Of a DNA stretch of 64,000 nucleotides, positions 1 to 51,953 are shown in pieces. The notes beneath the pieces were generated by a model that searched no databases, had not been told where the DNA came from, and worked only from the letters and a program-made list of their open reading frames with translations. Source of the stretch: Escherichia coli (lineage in GTDB: Bacteria > Pseudomonadota > Gammaproteobacteria > Enterobacterales > Enterobacteriaceae); NCBI RefSeq assembly GCF_024298765.1, contig NZ_CP101210.1. One strand, given 5' to 3'. Numbering within the stretch: the stretch's first letter is position 1; every line of letters begins with the position of its first letter. Made by a program: the position numbers and the translations under genes.

Positions 1-28
1 TCTGAGCCATGATCAAACTCTTCAATTT
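1..28 (-). rRNA. rrsE: 16S rRNA, 5' terminal 28 nt only (gene continues beyond window start)
   Basis: Reverse complement of 1..28 is AAATTGAAGAGTTTGATCATGGCTCAGA, the mature 16S 5' end; same leader as the complete 16S at 38929..40470. Confidence 0.8.
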
Positions 29-360
29 AAAAGTTTGATGCTCAAAGAATTAAACTTCGTAATGAATTACGTGTTCACTCTTGAGACTTGGTATTCATTT
101 TTCGTCTTGCGACGTTAAGAATCCGTATCTTCGAGTGCCCACACAGATTGTCTGATAAATTGTTAAAGAGCAGTTGCGACGCGGCTTTCAGCTCACTGTC
201 GCGAGGTGGCGTATACTACGCTTTCCTCTTTCAGAGTCAACCCTGAATTTCAGGGTTTTTTCTCTTCAACCGAACCGGCTGTTTGTGTGAAGTGATTCAC
301 ATCCGCCGTGTCGATGGAGGCGCATTATAGGGAGTTCTCCGCAGGCCGCAATAGAAAAAT
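29..360 (-). promoter_or_regulatory. rrn operon leader and tandem P2/P1 promoter region with AT-rich UP element
   Basis: Leader 29..177 is near-identical to 40471..40619; minus strand reads CTCCCTATAATGCGCC (P1 -10) near 321..336 and an A/T-rich UP-like tract at 352..372. Confidence 0.6.
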
Positions 361-522
361 TGCAGAAAAATGACTGACTGCTGCATTCCCCAGCAAAACC
401 CCGCTTTATACCTTTTTACGCACAGAGTTATCCACAATCATCAATGTAATTTCTGTATTTTTCCCACGGCAACCACTGTCAAAATTGTGATCACCATTGA
501 AAGAGAAAAATTCGCGAGCGTT

Positions 523-538
523 GCGCAAACGTTTTCGT
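523..538 (+). promoter_or_regulatory. PurR operator (PUR box) at the purHD promoter
   Basis: gcgcaaacgttttcgt matches the PurR 16-bp palindromic consensus (aCGCAAACGTTTnCgT) about 110 bp upstream of purH. Confidence 0.6.
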
Positions 539-575
539 TACAATGCGGGCGAAAAATAAGGATGCCCCGTTAGGG

Positions 576-613
576 GCGTTAGCTGAGTTTTTCGCGAAAA
601 ATTCAGCTAACGC
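576..613. other. 38-bp near-perfect palindrome in the purH 5' leader
   Basis: gcgttagctgagtttttcgcgaaaaattcagctaacgc is self-complementary except one mirrored mismatch; lies between the PUR box and the purH ATG. Confidence 0.5.
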
Positions 614-645
614 TCTCTGTAATAGTCAAATCCAGGGGATTTACC

Positions 646-2235
646 ATGCAACAACGTCGTCCAGTCCGCCGCGCTCTGCTCAGTGTTTCTGACAAAGCCG
701 GTATCGTCGAATTCGCCCAGGCACTTTCCGCACGCGGTGTGGAGCTGCTGTCTACAGGGGGCACTGCCCGTCTGTTAGCAGAAAAAGGTCTGCCGGTAAC
801 CGAAGTTTCCGATTACACCGGTTTCCCAGAGATGATGGATGGACGCGTGAAGACCCTGCATCCGAAAGTACATGGTGGCATTCTGGGTCGTCGCGGCCAG
901 GACGATGCCATTATGGAAGAACATCAGATCCAGCCTATCGATATGGTGGTTGTTAACCTGTATCCGTTCGCCCAGACCGTTGCCCGTGAAGGTTGCTCGC
1001 TGGAAGATGCGGTTGAGAACATCGATATCGGCGGCCCAACGATGGTGCGCTCTGCCGCCAAGAACCATAAAGATGTCGCCATCGTGGTGAAGAGCAGCGA
1101 CTACGACGCCATTATTAAAGAGATAGATGCCAATGAAGGCTCCCTGACTCTGGAAACTCGCTTTGACCTTGCCATTAAAGCCTTCGAACACACCGCCGCC
1201 TACGACAGCATGATTGCCAACTACTTCGGCAGCATGGTTCCGGCTTACCACGGTGAAAGCAAAGAAGCCGCCGGTCGCTTCCCACGCACGCTGAACCTGA
1301 ACTTCATTAAGAAGCAGGATATGCGTTACGGCGAGAACAGCCACCAGCAGGCTGCCTTCTATATAGAAGAGAATGTGAAAGAAGCCTCCGTTGCTACCGC
1401 AACCCAGGTTCAGGGTAAAGCCCTCTCTTATAACAACATCGCCGATACCGATGCGGCGCTGGAGTGCGTGAAAGAGTTCGCCGAGCCGGCATGTGTGATT
1501 GTGAAGCACGCCAACCCTTGCGGCGTGGCTATCGGCCATTCCATTCTTGATGCTTACGATCGCGCGTACAAAACCGACCCAACCTCCGCGTTCGGCGGCA
1601 TTATCGCCTTTAACCGCGAGCTGGATGCGGAAACCGCACAGGCCATCATTTCTCGTCAGTTTGTTGAAGTGATCATTGCGCCATCCGCCAGCGAAGAAGC
1701 CCTGAAAATCACCGCCGCCAAACAGAACGTGCGCGTCCTGACCTGCGGTCAGTGGGGCGAGCGTGTTCCGGGCCTTGATTTCAAACGCGTGAACGGCGGT
1801 CTGCTGGTTCAGGATCGAGACCTGGGGATGGTCGGTGCAGAAGAACTGCGCGTCGTCACCAAACGTCAGCCGACCGAACAGGAACTGCGTGATGCGCTGT
1901 TCTGCTGGAAAGTGGCGAAGTTCGTGAAATCCAATGCTATCGTCTATGCCAAAAACAATATGACCATCGGGATTGGCGCGGGCCAGATGAGCCGCGTGTA
2001 CTCCGCAAAAATCGCCGGTATTAAAGCTGCCGATGAAGGTCTGGAAGTGAAAGGTTCCTCGATGGCTTCTGACGCGTTCTTCCCGTTCCGCGACGGTATT
2101 GATGCCGCCGCCGCTGCGGGCGTGACCTGCGTAATCCAGCCTGGCGGTTCTATCCGTGATGACGAAGTGATTGCCGCCGCCGACGAGCACGGTATTGCAA
2201 TGCTCTTCACCGACATGCGCCACTTCCGCCATTAA
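646..2235 (+). CDS. purH: Bifunctional AICAR transformylase / IMP cyclohydrolase
   Basis: 529-aa ORF; N-terminus [27 protein letters not shown] typical of PurH; followed 11 bp later by purD. Confidence 0.97.
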
Positions 2236-2246
2236 TGGAGCAATAG

Positions 2247-3536
2247 ATGAAAGTATTAGTGATTGGTAACGGCGGGCGCGAGCACGCGCTGGCCTGGAAA
2301 GCGGCCCAGTCGCCGCTGGTTGAAACTGTTTTTGTTGCTCCGGGTAACGCAGGCACTGCGCTGGAGCCTGCACTGCAAAACGTCGCTATCGGCGTAACCG
2401 ATATCCCGGCGCTGCTGGATTTCGCGCAAAACGAAAAGATCGATCTAACCATCGTCGGCCCGGAAGCGCCGCTGGTGAAAGGCGTGGTGGATACCTTCCG
2501 CGCCGCCGGGCTGAAAATCTTCGGCCCAACCGCAGGTGCCGCGCAGCTGGAAGGCTCGAAAGCGTTTACCAAGGATTTCCTGGCCCGCCATCAGATCCCT
2601 ACGGCGGAATACCAGAACTTCACCGAGGTAGAACCTGCGCTGGCGTATCTGCGTGAGAAAGGCGCGCCAATCGTCATTAAAGCTGACGGTCTGGCTGCCG
2701 GGAAAGGCGTTATCGTGGCGATGACGCAGGAAGAAGCGGAAGCGGCTGTTCACGATATGCTGGCGGGCAACGCTTTTGGCGACGCGGGGCATCGCATCGT
2801 TATCGAAGAGTTCCTCGACGGCGAAGAAGCGAGCTTTATCGTGATGGTGGACGGTGAGCATGTGCTGCCGATGGCCACCAGCCAGGATCACAAACGCGTA
2901 GGCGATAAAGATACCGGGCCGAACACCGGCGGGATGGGCGCTTACTCCCCTGCGCCAGTGGTGACCGATGAAGTTCATCAGCGCACGATGGAACGTATCA
3001 TCTGGCCAACCGTGAAAGGCATGGCGGCGGAAGGCAACACCTACACCGGTTTTCTCTACGCGGGCCTGATGATCGACAAACAGGGCAATCCGAAGGTTAT
3101 TGAATTTAACTGCCGCTTTGGCGATCCAGAAACCCAGCCGATTATGCTGCGCATGAAGTCCGATCTGGTTGAGCTTTGCCTGGCGGCCTGTGAAGGCAAG
3201 CTGGACGAGAAAACGTCCGAGTGGGATGAACGCGCTTCTCTCGGCGTGGTGATGGCTGCGGGTGGATATCCGGGCGATTACCACACCGGCGATGTGATCC
3301 ACGGCCTGCCGCTGGAAGAAGTGTCTGACGGCAAAGTGTTCCACGCGGGCACGAAACTGGCGGATGACGAGCAGGTAGTGACCAGCGGCGGGCGCGTACT
3401 GTGCGTCACCGCGCTGGGTCATACCGTGGCAGAAGCGCAGAAACGCGCTTATGCCTTAATGACCGATATCCATTGGGACGACTGCTTCTGCCGGAAAGAT
3501 ATCGGCTGGCGCGCTATCGAACGCGAGCAGAACTAA
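2247..3536 (+). CDS. purD: Phosphoribosylamine-glycine ligase (GAR synthetase)
   Basis: 429-aa ORF MKVLVIGNGGREHALAWK; ATP-grasp fold signature; operon with purH. Confidence 0.97.
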   Translation: MKVLVIGNGGREHALAWKAAQSPLVETVFVAPGNAGTALEPALQNVAIGVTDIPALLDFAQNEKIDLTIVGPEAPLVKGVVDTFRAAGLKIFGPTAGAAQLEGSKAFTKDFLARHQIPTAEYQNFTEVEPALAYLREKGAPIVIKADGLAAGKGVIVAMTQEEAEAAVHDMLAGNAFGDAGHRIVIEEFLDGEEASFIVMVDGEHVLPMATSQDHKRVGDKDTGPNTGGMGAYSPAPVVTDEVHQRTMERIIWPTVKGMAAEGNTYTGFLYAGLMIDKQGNPKVIEFNCRFGDPETQPIMLRMKSDLVELCLAACEGKLDEKTSEWDERASLGVVMAAGGYPGDYHTGDVIHGLPLEEVSDGKVFHAGTKLADDEQVVTSGGRVLCVTALGHTVAEAQKRAYALMTDIHWDDCFCRKDIGWRAIEREQN

Positions 3537-7603: not shown

Positions 7604-7876
7604 TTACTTAACTGCGTCTTTCAGTGCCTTGCCAGAAACAAATGCCGGTACGTTAGCTGCGGCAATTTTGATTTCTTTACCGGTCTGCGGGTTGCGGCCA
7701 GTACGCTCAGCGCGGTGGTTCACTTTGAAGGTACCGAAACCAACCAGTTGTACAGCATCGCCTTCTTTCAGAGACTCAGTAATTGCAGCCAGAGTGGACT
7801 CCAGAGCAGCTTTAGCCTGGGTTTTGGACAGTTCTGCTTTCTCTGCAATTACATCAATCAGTTGAGTCTTGTTCAT
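7604..7876 (-). CDS. hupA: Nucleoid-associated protein HU alpha subunit
   Basis: 90 aa [73 protein letters not shown]. Confidence 0.98.
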
Positions 7877-7975
7877 AAGTTATCCTTACAATGTGTTTAT
7901 CGCTTGCTAAGCATCGAGTGCGACGGAAATGCCAGAATAGCACTCTCCTGCATACACGCACCGATAGCCACTTTT

Positions 7976-8012
7976 TTTCGCCCCCCAAATGTAGACCAGA
8001 CGGGGGGCGAAA
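7976..8012. other. GC-clamped stem-loop (tttcgcccccc / ggggggcgaaa) in the yjaG-hupA intergenic region
   Basis: 11-bp inverted repeat with a 15-nt loop, preceded by a T7 run on the plus strand. Confidence 0.5.
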
Positions 8013-46005: not shown

Positions 46006-46339
46006 CACGATGTCTGAATCCTTGCCAAAAGTACTGCTGGCACTATACCAGAGAATGAACATACTGGATTGCTCCAGTATTGTGAATGAACGGTAACGCA
46101 ATAAAACATATTTACTGCAATTCTTTGGCCGGTTCTTTTACGTACAACGGAAACCTGCCGCTTAAACGGAGAGTATCGTCGATAAAAATCCAATAAAACG
46201 TTCAGGTCAAAAGTAAGAAACAGACAAAGCAAAGGCCGCTCACGATATAGCCAGATAAATGACGGGGATCAATTGGCTTACCCGCGATAAAATGTTATCA
46301 TTCTGTTGCTTTTATGTATAAGAACAGGTAAGCCCTACC

Positions 46340-48735: not shown

Positions 48736-48848
48736 GAAACGGAGCGGCACCTCTTTTAACCCTTGAAGTCACTGCCCGTTTCGAGAGTTTCTCAACTCGA
48801 ATAACTAAAGCCAACGTGAACTTTTGCGGATCTCCAGGATCCGCTTTT
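48736..48848 (+). ncRNA. oxyS: OxyS small regulatory RNA
   Basis: GAAACGGAGCGGCACCTCTTTTAACCCTTGAAGTCACTGCCCGTTTCGAGAGTTTCTCAACTCGAATAACTAAAGCCAACGTGAACTTTTGCGGATCTCCAGGATCCGCTTTTTTTT; divergent from oxyR. Confidence 0.92.
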
Positions 48849-48891
48849 TTTTATTCTACAGGCCCACAGCAAGAGAGCCTGATAGTAACGG

Positions 48892-50175
48892 TTACTCAAT
48901 CCGATCTTTGACAATAAAGAAGTAACACAGCGCCCCGGTGAACGTCACACAGGCCGCGATAACCAGCGCCAGATTAAACGAGTGTGTGGTATCCACGACC
49001 CAACCGGTTACGATCGGAGCAAAGGAAGCAAAAACAAAACTGCCAAAGTTTTGAATCCCGGCGATGGAAGCCACTTTTGTTTCTGACACCATCACCTGCA
49101 CCAGCCCCCATGCAGATGTTCCCGCGAAATGCACGCAGAACAGCGCCATTGAGATAAACGCTACCGCCTGGGCTGGCGAGGAAGATTGCACGACCAGCAA
49201 CGTGCCTAATGCCGACATCATCAAACCGCAGACAATCGCCGTTTTACGCGTCTTCGCCAGGTCATAGCCTTTTTTCGCCAGCCGATCGACAACAATACCG
49301 TTAACCCACATCCCGACCGCCGCCGCGAGGAAAGGAATTGCCGCCACCCAACCGGTTTTCGCCAGACTGAAACCTTGTTCGGCCTGCAAATAACCGGGTA
49401 ACCACGCGATGTAGAGCCAACCGGTATAATTGACGCCAGAGAAACCTAAAATCATCCCCCAGGTTGTCCGATGCTTAAACAGCGCCAGCCACTCGCTAAA
49501 TTGTAACTGTGGACGCGGTTTAACCGGCGCGGAGAGATATGTCCGTTCTTCCTCGGTCAGGACAAACTGCGCCCGGTTGCGATACCACGCGTACCAACAG
49601 ATCCCAACCAGAATCCCTGCTACGCCGATGATGACAAACATCGTCCGCCAGCCCCATGCCAGTTGCATCAATACAAGAGCAGGAGGCGCGATAGCCTGAC
49701 CGATAACGGTAGATGAGTTAAAAATCCCCAGCGCCGTGCCGCGTTCTTTTTGCGCATACCAGTCGGTGATCGACTTTACTCCCGCAGGCATAAATGGCGC
49801 TTCGCCAATACCCAGACCGATACGCATTAAAATAAAGTGGCTAAAAGAATTAACCATTCCTGTTAATGCCTGCATTAATGACCAGAATATTAAGCCTGCG
49901 CCTAACACTATTCGTGGGCCAAAGCGGTCTAGCAAAATACCGGAAGGAAGTTGTGAAAAACCATAAGACAGAGAAAATGCAGAAAGCAAAACACCAAACT
50001 CGGTAGCGGATAATCCTAACTCGCCACGAATTGCTTCACCTGCCACGCTCAATGACGAACGGTCGAGAAAATTAACGATCCCCGCCATAAATAATAAAAC
50101 CAGGGTCACTGTCTGAATACGACGAATCCGTTGCGGTTTATTACCCGCAACACTGGTTGACACATCAACGTCCAT
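48892..50175 (-). CDS. MFS transporter, anion:cation symporter family (hexonate/hexuronate-type)
   Basis: 427-aa ORF; MFS motif A GILLDRFGPRIV; about 12 hydrophobic segments; strong RBS aaggag; resembles the DgoT/ExuT/GudP/RhmT class by eye. Confidence 0.85.
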   Translation of the reverse strand: MDVDVSTSVAGNKPQRIRRIQTVTLVLLFMAGIVNFLDRSSLSVAGEAIRGELGLSATEFGVLLSAFSLSYGFSQLPSGILLDRFGPRIVLGAGLIFWSLMQALTGMVNSFSHFILMRIGLGIGEAPFMPAGVKSITDWYAQKERGTALGIFNSSTVIGQAIAPPALVLMQLAWGWRTMFVIIGVAGILVGICWYAWYRNRAQFVLTEEERTYLSAPVKPRPQLQFSEWLALFKHRTTWGMILGFSGVNYTGWLYIAWLPGYLQAEQGFSLAKTGWVAAIPFLAAAVGMWVNGIVVDRLAKKGYDLAKTRKTAIVCGLMMSALGTLLVVQSSSPAQAVAFISMALFCVHFAGTSAWGLVQVMVSETKVASIAGIQNFGSFVFASFAPIVTGWVVDTTHSFNLALVIAACVTFTGALCYFFIVKDRIE

Positions 50176-50241
50176 TTTTAGCTCCTTGAGCGGAATTAAT
50201 CGATTTGATGAATATTCAGAAAATAATTAAGCGAACCGCTA

Positions 50242-51456
50242 TTACCAGTTCCACAATGTGCCATCTTCCAGTCGTGCGACGGGGAGATACGCCGGGTCAT
50301 ACGGATATTTCGCCGCCAGTTTCTCATCGAAAGAAATACCCAGCCCCGGTTCATCGCCTGGGTGCATATAACCTTCATCGAAGCGCCAGCTATGCGGGAA
50401 GACTTCAAGCATTTGTTCGGAATAGCCCATGTACTCCTGAACGCCAAAGTTTGGCACCCAGAGGTCAAAATGCAGCGCCGCCGCATGGCAAACAGGCGAT
50501 AAATCTGAAGGGCCATGCGAACCGGTACGTACCTGATAAAGCGATGCAAAATCGGCAATCCGTCGCATCCCGGTAATGCCGCCTGCATGGGTAATCGTCG
50601 TGCGAATATAGTCAATCAGCTGCTCTTCGATTAACTGCTTGCAGTCCCAGATACTGTTAAACACTTCACCGACCGCAATCGGCGTCACGGTATGCTGACG
50701 AATCAGACGAAAACATTCCTGATTCTCGGCAGGCGTCGGATCTTCCATCCAGAACAGGCGGTAATCTTCAATGCTCTTCCCAAAGCGCGCCGCTTCGATG
50801 GGGGTCAGGCGATGGTGCATGTCATGCAACAGATGTTCGTTAAAACCGAACTTATTACGCACCGCTTCAAATAACTTCGGCGTAAAATCGAGATACTTTT
50901 CTGAAGACCACAACTGCTCTTCTGGCCACAGGCCTTTGGTTGCTGGTTCATACGCCAGTCCTTTGCCCTTCGCCAGACCATAGGTGGTTTGCATACCCGG
51001 TACACCACACTGCACACGAATCGCCTTAAAGCCCATCTGCTGGTGCTTTGCATAGTCTTCAAGGACTTCATCAATCGTACGCCCGGTGGTGTGGCAATAA
51101 ACCATAACGCCTTCACGAGAAGCACCACCAAGCAGTTGATACAATGGCATATTTGCCGCTTTTGCTTTGATATCCCACAACGCCATATCAATGGCAGAAA
51201 TGGCTGACATCGTGACGGGGCCACGTCGCCAGTAAGCACCTTTATAAAAGAATTGCCAGATATCTTCGATACGGCTGGCATCGCGGCCAATTAGTTGTGG
51301 ACAAAGATGATCTTTCAGATAAGAAGCGACCGACAATTCGCGACCATTTAACGTGGCATCTCCTAATCCACAAAGTCCGCTTGCAGTGGTTATTTTAAGC
51401 GTAACGAAATTACGCCCTGGGCAAGTAACAAAAACATCTGCAGCAATAATTTTCAT
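50242..51456 (-). CDS. Enolase-superfamily dehydratase, D-mannonate dehydratase (ManD/RspA-like) subgroup
   Basis: 404 aa from [24 protein letters not shown]; ManD-type motifs ([25 protein letters not shown]) and metal ligands in HDMHH / WMEDP / GEVF; RBS aggag. Confidence 0.85.
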
Positions 51457-51857
51457 TATTGCAATCTCCTGTGTTGTAAATAGACGTTTCAAACTTAATT
51501 TTGCGCCTACTACCATACAAGAGAGAAAGAGCGATTATTCAACCATGATCACATTAAAAATAAAAATTTCTACCGAGGAGAAAAAACACCCTCAAAAACC
51601 ACCTGAATAATTAGCTATCATCGTTAAAACAACACGTTAAATAATCACATAACAAACTCCATTAATCATTAAAAATGAACACAGCAATAGAAATGAATTA
51701 TATTCAATTAATTAAAGTATGTATTGGCTGATGTATTGAAAATATAATTTTTATGGGGAGAGTGAAGGTAAAGAAGACGCAAGAATAAAAAGGAATGTGA
51801 CAAATAATGGTTCTGGTTGGGCGTTAAATTTAAGGTCACCAGAATACTGACAAATTT

Positions 51858-51912
51858 CTGCCTGATGCGGCGTAAACGCCTTATCCGCCTACGAAGTGTC
51901 GCACTTTGTAGG
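51858..51912. repeat. REP/BIME-type palindromic repeat downstream of argH
   Basis: gcctgatgcggcgtaaacgccttatccgcctac followed by an imperfect palindrome gaagtgtcgcactttgtagg. Confidence 0.6.
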
Positions 51913-51953
51913 CGTGGTAAGCTCCCCATTTTCAGGGGAGCAATATAAACAAA

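Follow-up and report, generated by a model that had tools for sequence, protein, structure and literature searches.

We analysed a 64,000-nucleotide stretch of Escherichia coli DNA (contig NZ_CP101210.1 of assembly GCF_024298765.1; hereafter the window) with a focus on manD, a gene for an enolase-superfamily dehydratase that is followed by a gene for an MFS transporter. The two genes form an operon, transcribed from manD to the MFS gene on the minus strand, in an island of ~3.1 kb (about 48846-51953) that lies between oxyS and argH. The island is a real, intact and already annotated accessory operon, ordinary in kind. Comparison of its genes with their relatives indicates that it probably imports D-mannonate and dehydrates it to 2-keto-3-deoxygluconate (KDG). 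D-Mannonate is the predicted cargo because ManD and the transporter are adjacent in the rsp loci of related bacteria, transporters of a sister clade are paired with UxuA, and the transporters of both groups are identical at 13 pocket, gating and coupling positions. The two genes are as follows.

50242..51456, minus strand: manD, encoding a 404-amino acid (aa) enolase-superfamily dehydratase of the ManD subgroup, a paralogue or xenologue of RspA (open reading frame, Pfam, NCBIfam and PDB alignment)
48892..50175, minus strand: gene for an MFS transporter of 427 aa, ACS/SLC17-like family, predicted to be a D-mannonate:H+ symporter (Pfam MFS_1, a TIGR00893 score under the cutoff, and likeness to DgoT)

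In the mechanism that we propose, the MFS protein would take up D-mannonate together with protons, and the Tyr159-Arg147 dyad of ManD would remove the C2 proton. Asp212, Glu238 and Glu264 would hold Mg2+, with stabilisation of the enediolate, and His214 would act as the acid that helps the 3-OH to leave, giving 2-keto-3-deoxy-D-gluconate as the product. KDG would then be converted to pyruvate and glyceraldehyde-3-phosphate by the core enzymes KdgK and Eda, a route that forms part of core metabolism. Transcription would start from an rspA-type promoter with -35 and -10 elements and a CRP-like TGTGATC motif, and would probably depend on CRP and be partly freed from RspR. A route that ends in KDG had been proposed in an initial annotation of this DNA, and our analysis supports it.

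Literature searches for the island, for E. coli 'manD', and for rspB, ydfI and gulonate returned nothing specific. The island copy and its transporter appear to be uncharacterised in the searchable literature, the gene being already annotated as manD and its family well studied. Beyond that annotation, the present work adds a link to the rsp cluster, an RspR box that is half lost, and a displacement between ManD and UxuA that points to D-mannonate as the cargo. Gene identities, conserved catalytic and coupling residues, synteny, promoter homology, purifying selection and distribution among strains are shown by the analysis, from which we infer the cargo, the substrate in vivo, how efficient the enzyme is and how the island is regulated.

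ManD carries the residues that define its subgroup

The open reading frame of manD is intact, with a start ATG at 51456 and a stop codon at 50244-50242 on the minus strand, and a ribosome-binding site (RBS), AGGAG, lies 9 nucleotides (nt) 5' of the ATG. The RefSeq model has the same 404 aa (WP_000690928.1, 'D-mannonate dehydratase ManD'). A longer form starting at an in-frame ATG at 51516 (20 additional codons) was rejected because this codon sits in the -35 hexamer, 5' of both the -10 element and the predicted transcription start site (TSS); RefSeq models omit it, and the homologues all begin with MKI. The upstream ATG is probably a chance extension of the reading frame.

Pfam searches identified MR_MLE_N (PF02746, 117 bits) and MR_MLE_C (PF13378, 157 bits), corresponding to a capping domain and a modified TIM barrel. 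The protein scored 731.5 bits with the NCBIfam equivalog model for ManD (NF043051, cutoff 550) and 806 bits with PRK15072, and the models for other subgroups all remained under their cutoffs (galactonate dehydratase, 249 bits; talarate/galactarate dehydratase, 141 bits; rhamnonate dehydratase, 90 bits). Full-length alignments were obtained with two crystallised members of the ManD subgroup, 4IL2 (E 5e-270) and 4E4F (E 2e-268), to which the identity is roughly 90% as estimated by reading the alignments.

Inspection of the sequence revealed the motifs HDMHH (residues 211-215), WMEDP (236-240) and GEVF (263-266), and R147, Y159, D212, H214, E238, E264, R285, H314 and E341 were unchanged in 16 homologues. 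D212, E238 and E264 are the Mg2+ ligands of the enolase superfamily, found at the ends of barrel strands 3, 4 and 5. In the numbering of 2QJJ, the ManD subgroup is defined by the R147-Y159 base dyad (R147 at the end of strand 2 and Y159 on a loop), E262, and R283 at the end of strand 6 (PMC4570537); the corresponding residues of the island protein, R147, Y159, E264 and R285, are all present. The initial annotation had placed the protein in the ManD subgroup with intact metal ligands, and this assignment is confirmed: the catalytic residues are found on alignment, and the best match is ManD, not galactonate or rhamnonate dehydratase. Its description of the substrate as unassigned was overstated, since the curated ManD equivalog is passed and RefSeq uses the D-mannonate dehydratase name for the gene in ~1860 genomes.

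The transporter resembles DgoT and differs at hydroxyl-reading positions

The downstream neighbour of manD is the MFS gene, so that the partner of the dehydratase is indeed a transporter and not a dehydrogenase, as the initial annotation had stated. Pfam assigned the protein to MFS_1 (PF07690). Its best NCBIfam match was TIGR00893, the D-galactonate transporter subfamily, at 276.6 bits and under the cutoff of 395; the transporter is thus a relative of TIGR00893 and not a member at the NCBI threshold. The nearest solved structure was that of DgoT (6E9N, 198 bits).

Experiments with DgoT have shown that D46 and E133, which serve H+ coupling, and R47, which contacts the substrate carboxylate, are essential (PMC6532931). 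These residues align with D38, E125 and R39 of the island transporter (the Asp-Arg pair of transmembrane helix 1 and the Glu of helix 4), and the equivalents of Y79 and N393 are also kept. The MFS fold, the coupling Asp/Glu and the carboxylate-binding Arg/Tyr are common to the island protein, DgoT (PDB 6E9N/6E9O) and the K-12 ACS transporters ExuT, RhmT, LgoT, GarP and GudP. However, DgoT is only 32% identical to the island transporter, and its specificity residues differ. Among the residues with which DgoT reads hydroxyl groups, Q164 is replaced by T, Q264 by F and S370 by G, and N393 alone is kept. Because three of these four residues are unlike those of DgoT, the cargo is predicted to be a sugar acid other than D-galactonate, and the protein fits a proton-coupled importer of such a compound.

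A preprint that assigned substrates to the six K-12 ACS transporters makes no mention of mannonate, gulonate or the island transporter (bioRxiv 10.64898/2026.05.20.726482). Searches for a mannonate transporter, permease or uptake returned nothing specific in open papers, and the name 'UxuT' proved to denote an unrelated small RNA or a glucuronate transporter. Five more distant MFS homologues (42-56% identity) occur in unrelated contexts and were uninformative on the cargo.

Transporters of a sister clade are paired with UxuA

We then compared the transporter with its sister clade, whose members are 65-72% identical to the island protein (69-72% for the five that are linked to UxuA). The uxuA gene lies immediately downstream of the MFS gene in five of the six sister-clade loci, those of Rouxiella, Pectobacterium, Leminorella, Providencia and K. 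michiganensis; the sixth, from Celerinatantimonas, holds a regulator and the MFS gene only. The cassette consists of a divergent GntR/FCD regulator, the transporter and UxuA, contains no other catabolic enzyme, and has different flanks at every locus. All 13 positions of the pocket, gate and coupling site were identical between the ManD-linked and the UxuA-linked transporters.

UxuA is the classical, D-mannonate-specific dehydratase of the glucuronate pathway. The reaction and product predicted for it and for island ManD are the same, whereas fold and metal chemistry are unrelated. The cassette therefore resembles the island in its orthologous transporter lineage, in having a mannonate dehydratase, and in its predicted product, KDG, and differs in that UxuA (PF03786) is unrelated in fold to ManD, the MFS gene precedes that of the dehydratase, and a dedicated regulator is present. 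This regulator was excluded as an orthologue of RspR (~28% identity and a different operator), and since the regulators are not orthologous, what the ManD and UxuA arrangements would share is the transporter and the reaction. In the uxuAB operon, UxuA is under the control of UxuR/ExuR and acts on internally generated mannonate (PMC5934670). Mannonate, gluconate and gulonate had all been named in the initial annotation; the UxuA pairing in five of six sister-clade loci and the identical pocket residues favour D-mannonate.

That one transporter lineage is paired with either ManD or the unrelated UxuA argues that ManDs of the RspA type act in vivo as D-mannonate dehydratases on imported D-mannonate. 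What the low-efficiency ManDs of this type do physiologically is a question that dates from the function-discovery work on the enolase superfamily. If our prediction is correct, the MFS protein would be a D-mannonate:H+ symporter and, in many E. coli strains, a seventh ACS transporter beyond the six of K-12. It would also entail a strain-level difference, with growth on D-mannonate in strains of the CFT073, sequence type (ST) 95 and E2348/69 types and not in K-12, and this difference may bear on the use of niches in the gut or the urinary tract.

A few further features of the UxuA cassettes were recorded. A conserved operator-like repeat (TGGCCTGACCAnCAGAC / GGTCCA variants) lies upstream of the MFS gene (loci L018 and L034-L038) and is unlike the RspR box. 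The best model scores of the GntR/FCD regulator were for UxuR and ExuR, both under cutoff. In K. michiganensis (L037), the cassette is flanked (1-3347 and 7757-8002) by genes for IS66-family and DDE_Tnp_1 (PF01609) transposases and a transposase fragment, which suggests that the regulator-MFS-UxuA module moves as a unit.

The transporter belongs to the rsp cluster of other Enterobacteriaceae

Orthologues of both island proteins were found inside the rsp locus in Lelliottia, Siccibacter, Enterobacter, Pluralibacter, Raoultella, Klebsiella, Citrobacter and Atlantibacter, with identities of 91-94% for ManD and 82-89% for the transporter. The gene order of this locus is ynfC-speG-ynfB-ynfA-[MFS + rspA, either order]-rspB-ydfJ-ydfI-ydfZ-rspR-ydfG-dcp. 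The MFS gene adjoins rspA in 10 of 11 rsp-locus examples, in both gene orders, and the island order, manD and then MFS, is also seen in Lelliottia, Siccibacter and Enterobacter kpr-6. The K-12 rsp locus is colinear with those of the other genera and is without this MFS gene only. The transporter thus belongs to the ordinary gene complement of the rsp cluster in enterobacteria, and the island of E. coli is equivalent to the two leading genes of a Lelliottia-type operon. Because the same transporter stands beside rspA in other rsp loci, we regard the island as a detached 'rspA-like + transporter' module. The pairing with a transporter had been taken to suggest a route distinct from that of rspAB; this does not hold, given that the same transporter resides next to rspA elsewhere and that the rspA promoter core is kept. 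The rsp loci of the other genera share the gene pair and the promoter core with the island, from which rspB, ydfJ, ydfI and rspR are all missing. The site of the island is unrelated to the rsp locus, and an AT-rich leader and a repetitive extragenic palindromic (REP)-like element are particular to it.

This neighbourhood bears on a second explanation, in which the MFS protein would import L-gulonate (or another aldonate), native RspB and YdfI would convert it in trans via D-fructuronate to D-mannonate, and ManD would perform the last step. RspB is a Zn-dependent dehydrogenase (PRK10083) and YdfI belongs to the fructuronate-reductase family (PRK15037), and the MFS-ManD pair lies in a cluster with both genes in most Enterobacteriaceae. 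Wichelecki and colleagues are said to have described the rsp cluster in 2014 as a cryptic L-gulonate pathway in CFT073. However, the pair persists in two loci from which rspB and ydfJ are absent (L006 and L012), and rspB has an MHS-family transporter gene of its own, ydfJ, directly after it in seven of the nine loci in which it occurs. In addition, the transporter of the sister clade has the same pocket residues and is accompanied by UxuA alone and by no dehydrogenase or reductase, and the island moved without rspB. Catabolism of L-gulonate by the island is for these reasons unlikely.

The relationship with native RspA was examined next. Island manD and K-12 rspA are 80% identical in nucleotide and 91.6% in aa sequence, with synonymous divergence (dS) saturated. 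Island ManD is set apart in a clade of its own, and the RspA of K-12 is nearer to that of other genera (93-95%) than to the island copy. A recent duplication of rspA was therefore excluded as the origin of the island by the nucleotide identity, the saturated dS and the separate clade. Nor does the island protein behave as an RspA orthologue: its gene is located at oxyS/argH and not at ynfA/rspB, and it does not cluster with RspA from rsp loci. The RspA of E. coli rspAB (PDB 4IL2) has the fold, the 404-aa length, the catalytic residues and the promoter core in common with island ManD. In contrast, rspA lies between ynfA and rspB, and island manD is accessory (34% of strains), has an ACS transporter gene next to it instead of rspB, and has lost the left arm of the RspR box. 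The initial annotation had called this gene a second ManD, which is true genome-wide, as genomes with the island, CFT073 and strain 104 among them, also have native rspA, and not within the window, where there is a single copy.

The historical naming of the rsp genes reflects a signalling ('starvation-sensing') role, first proposed for RspA, and overexpression of rspAB lowered the synthesis of RpoS (Huisman and Kolter 1994, as recounted in PMC8249747). The chemistry of the enzyme, its pairing with a transporter and the catabolic genes around it in related loci point instead to sugar-acid catabolism, and the island contains no signalling component, making such a role hardly credible here.

In three genera, the rsp cluster has acquired an inserted uxaC (glucuronate isomerase) and a GPH-family (glucuronide-type) transporter gene (Pluralibacter, L007 10693-13678; Atlantibacter, L012 3278-6262; Raoultella, L011 13219-16196). 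The Atlantibacter cluster, rspA-uxaC-GPH-ydfI-MFS, has neither rspB nor ydfJ and resembles an entire route from glucuronides to KDG, with RspA as the putative mannonate dehydratase.

The island promoter retains the rspA core and half of the RspR box

Homology to the rspA promoter spans 100 bp upstream of manD. The region and its elements, all on the minus strand, are listed below.

51457..51560, minus strand: promoter and leader homologous to the rspA promoter (alignment of 11 promoters)
51553-51547, minus strand: TGTGATC
51524-51515, minus strand: degenerate RspR box, TCTCTTGTAT
51520-51515, minus strand: -35 element, TTGTAT
51497-51492, minus strand: -10 element, TAAGTT
51470-51466, minus strand: RBS, AGGAG

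The alignment comprised rspA-first, MFS-first and island loci from seven genera, and TGTGA and CTTGTATGGTAGT were invariant in all 11 promoters. In K-12, rspAB is repressed by RspR (YdfH), which leaves a 31-bp footprint with the palindrome ATACnnGTAT at its centre, and transcription starts 30 bp upstream of the ATG (PMC8249747). Relative to this start, the K-12 RspR box, ATACTTGTAT, occupies positions -39 to -30, over the -35 element, and TGTGATC is centred at -60.5. An exact ATACnnGTAT was found nowhere in the 64-kb window. In the island box, TCTCTTGTAT, which overlaps the -35 element, three of the four bases of the left arm are changed, with the right arm and the core around it preserved. 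All rspA-first rsp loci have the exact box, and MFS-first operons with an adjacent rspR also have imperfect left arms. Since the left arm of the palindrome is lost, repression of the island by RspR is predicted to be weakened or absent. The work by genomic systematic evolution of ligands by exponential enrichment (gSELEX) was done with K-12, an island-free strain. In a search for CRP sites, the TGTGATC half-site proved to be conserved and the second half weak, with 7 of 10 consensus positions matched, which suggests possible control of the island promoter by CRP.

Distribution and selection in E. coli

We chose the transporter gene, which has no close paralogue, for a census of 5426 complete E. 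coli genomes. It was present in 1869 of these at 1871 places, always on the chromosome and essentially as a single copy. In 1862 genomes the gene was near-complete, with 80% or more of its length, and 1860 (~34%) had the whole island. Two allele classes were seen, one with at least 99% identity (n=553, including UM146 and the type of the window) and one with 95-99% identity (n=1316), for which the examples listed at 97.1-97.7% include E2348/69, an avian pathogenic (O78 APEC) strain, a Shiga toxin-producing (O121 STEC) strain and ST648. E. whittamii and Escherichia sp. have this island too, at the same position. Within the island clade (the two E. coli allele classes, Escherichia sp. and E. whittamii), the ratio of nonsynonymous to synonymous substitution rates (dN/dS) was 0.01-0.05 for both manD and the MFS gene, values that indicate strong purifying selection and a maintained function.

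Insertion sequences (IS) interrupt the island region in individual strains, with an IS1A-family element in HCM-28C-2 and an ISKpn26-family element in FY10, where the annotation splits the MFS gene in two; such insertions show that the island is occasionally inactivated. Some shortened or partial ManD entries exist for Shigella flexneri.

A number of points weigh against uptake and dehydration of D-mannonate as the function of the island. About 66% of E. coli genomes do not have it. In Citrobacter sp. R56 (L019 7207-8000), with the same argH/oxyR site and promoter core, manD is cut down to codons ~1-32 and ~371-403 and the MFS gene is intact (92% identity). E. coli has uxuA, so that ManD looks redundant. 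Wichelecki and colleagues reportedly found in 2014 that E. coli CFT073 RspA and Pectobacterium ManD, the closest characterised relatives, dehydrate D-mannonate at low efficiency only, and are said to have found no physiological role for low-efficiency ManDs, given UxuA. Ten substitutions are fixed in the island ManD clade, and two of the positions, 156 and 161, flank the catalytic Tyr159; the specificity of the enzyme could therefore have shifted. Finally, the adjacency of UxuA or ManD to the transporter would also fit a cargo that lies one step upstream, D-fructuronate or glucuronate, in hosts that provide UxuB/UxaC in trans.

Several of these points are shared by the view that the island is a cryptic or redundant relic, which would be silent (for example through H-NS acting on the AT-rich leader) or irrelevant since UxuA supplies the activity. 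Absence from about two-thirds of the species, the internal manD deletion in Citrobacter sp. R56 and the reported low efficiency of the closest characterised homologues, with no role identified for them, agree with such a view, as do the IS1 and ISKpn26 insertions in some strains, the incomplete Shigella flexneri entries and the 35% GC content of the leader. A relic would not be expected to have such low dN/dS in both genes, a promoter core that is invariant across genera, and catalytic and coupling residues that are all intact, nor to be near-complete in ~1860 complete genomes, and we consider it improbable.

ManD could also have diverged to another substrate, such as D-gluconate, D-altronate or a different acid sugar, with the MFS protein importing that compound. 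The members of the ManD subgroup reportedly vary in specificity, according to the same 2014 work of Wichelecki and colleagues, and an older database name is 'bifunctional D-altronate/D-mannonate dehydratase'. The island clade also sits on a long branch with the ten fixed substitutions, of which two are beside Tyr159. Against this, the protein is 91-94% identical to all RspA proteins from rsp loci, none of the catalytic positions varies, the score exceeds the cutoff of the ManD equivalog model, and the lineage of the partner transporter pairs with UxuA. A change of substrate is thus very improbable.

Chromosomal site and ends of the island

The island is flanked by trmA-yijD-fabR-sthA-oxyR on one side and by argH-argB-argC/argE-ppc on the other. 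Alignment with K-12 showed that it replaces ~55 bp of intergenic DNA; homology to K-12 stops after the OxyS terminator and returns at the argH stop codon. The GC content is 0.50-0.51 in the island coding regions, compared with 0.55-0.56 in the flanking genes, and 0.346 in 51457-51953. The gap between manD and the MFS gene measures 66 bp and is without a convincing terminator. The remaining features of the site are as follows.

48736-48845, plus strand: OxyS (Rfam, 139.5 bits)
48846..48891, minus strand: left end of the island, a 46-bp spacer from the MFS stop codon to the 3' end of the convergent oxyS (K-12 alignment and fold)
51561..51858, minus strand: AT-rich (~35% GC), island-specific upstream DNA of ~300 bp, with no gene and no known RNA family
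51859..51953, minus strand: right end of the island, with a hairpin at 51940-51922 and a REP-like element at about 51913-51859 (sequence reading and K-12 junction alignment)

The hairpin and REP-like element of the right end follow directly after the argH stop codon, in place of the argH terminator of K-12. A REP-derived Rfam match of the naRNA4/REP type at 51810-51890 on the minus strand was weak (27.6 bits, against a gathering score of 59.5). Scanning the AT-rich leader for Rfam families, repeats and small open reading frames revealed only the REP-like element and short chance reading frames. The E. whittamii and Escherichia sp. islands also have this leader conserved.

At the left end, we sought a canonical intrinsic terminator for the manD-MFS transcript in the minus-strand fold near 48790-48900 and found two hairpins, neither of them with a U-tract. 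With no canonical terminator and only 46 bp to the convergent oxyS, antisense read-through into oxyS may be possible. There is a slight chance that transcription of the island, when induced, could continue through oxyS into the oxyS/oxyR control region, which would couple sugar-acid supply to the OxyS/OxyR oxidative-stress circuit in island strains. At the same place in K-12, argH has its own hairpin and T6 terminator, and with this dedicated terminator K-12 would not have such an interaction.

A further difference between strains was noted close to the island. In CFT073 (L026 30897-33422), genes for an M20 aminoacylase and a citrate-proton symporter are present between sthA and fabR that are not in the window (46102-46339), and the sthA-fabR gap is a second variable spot of this region.

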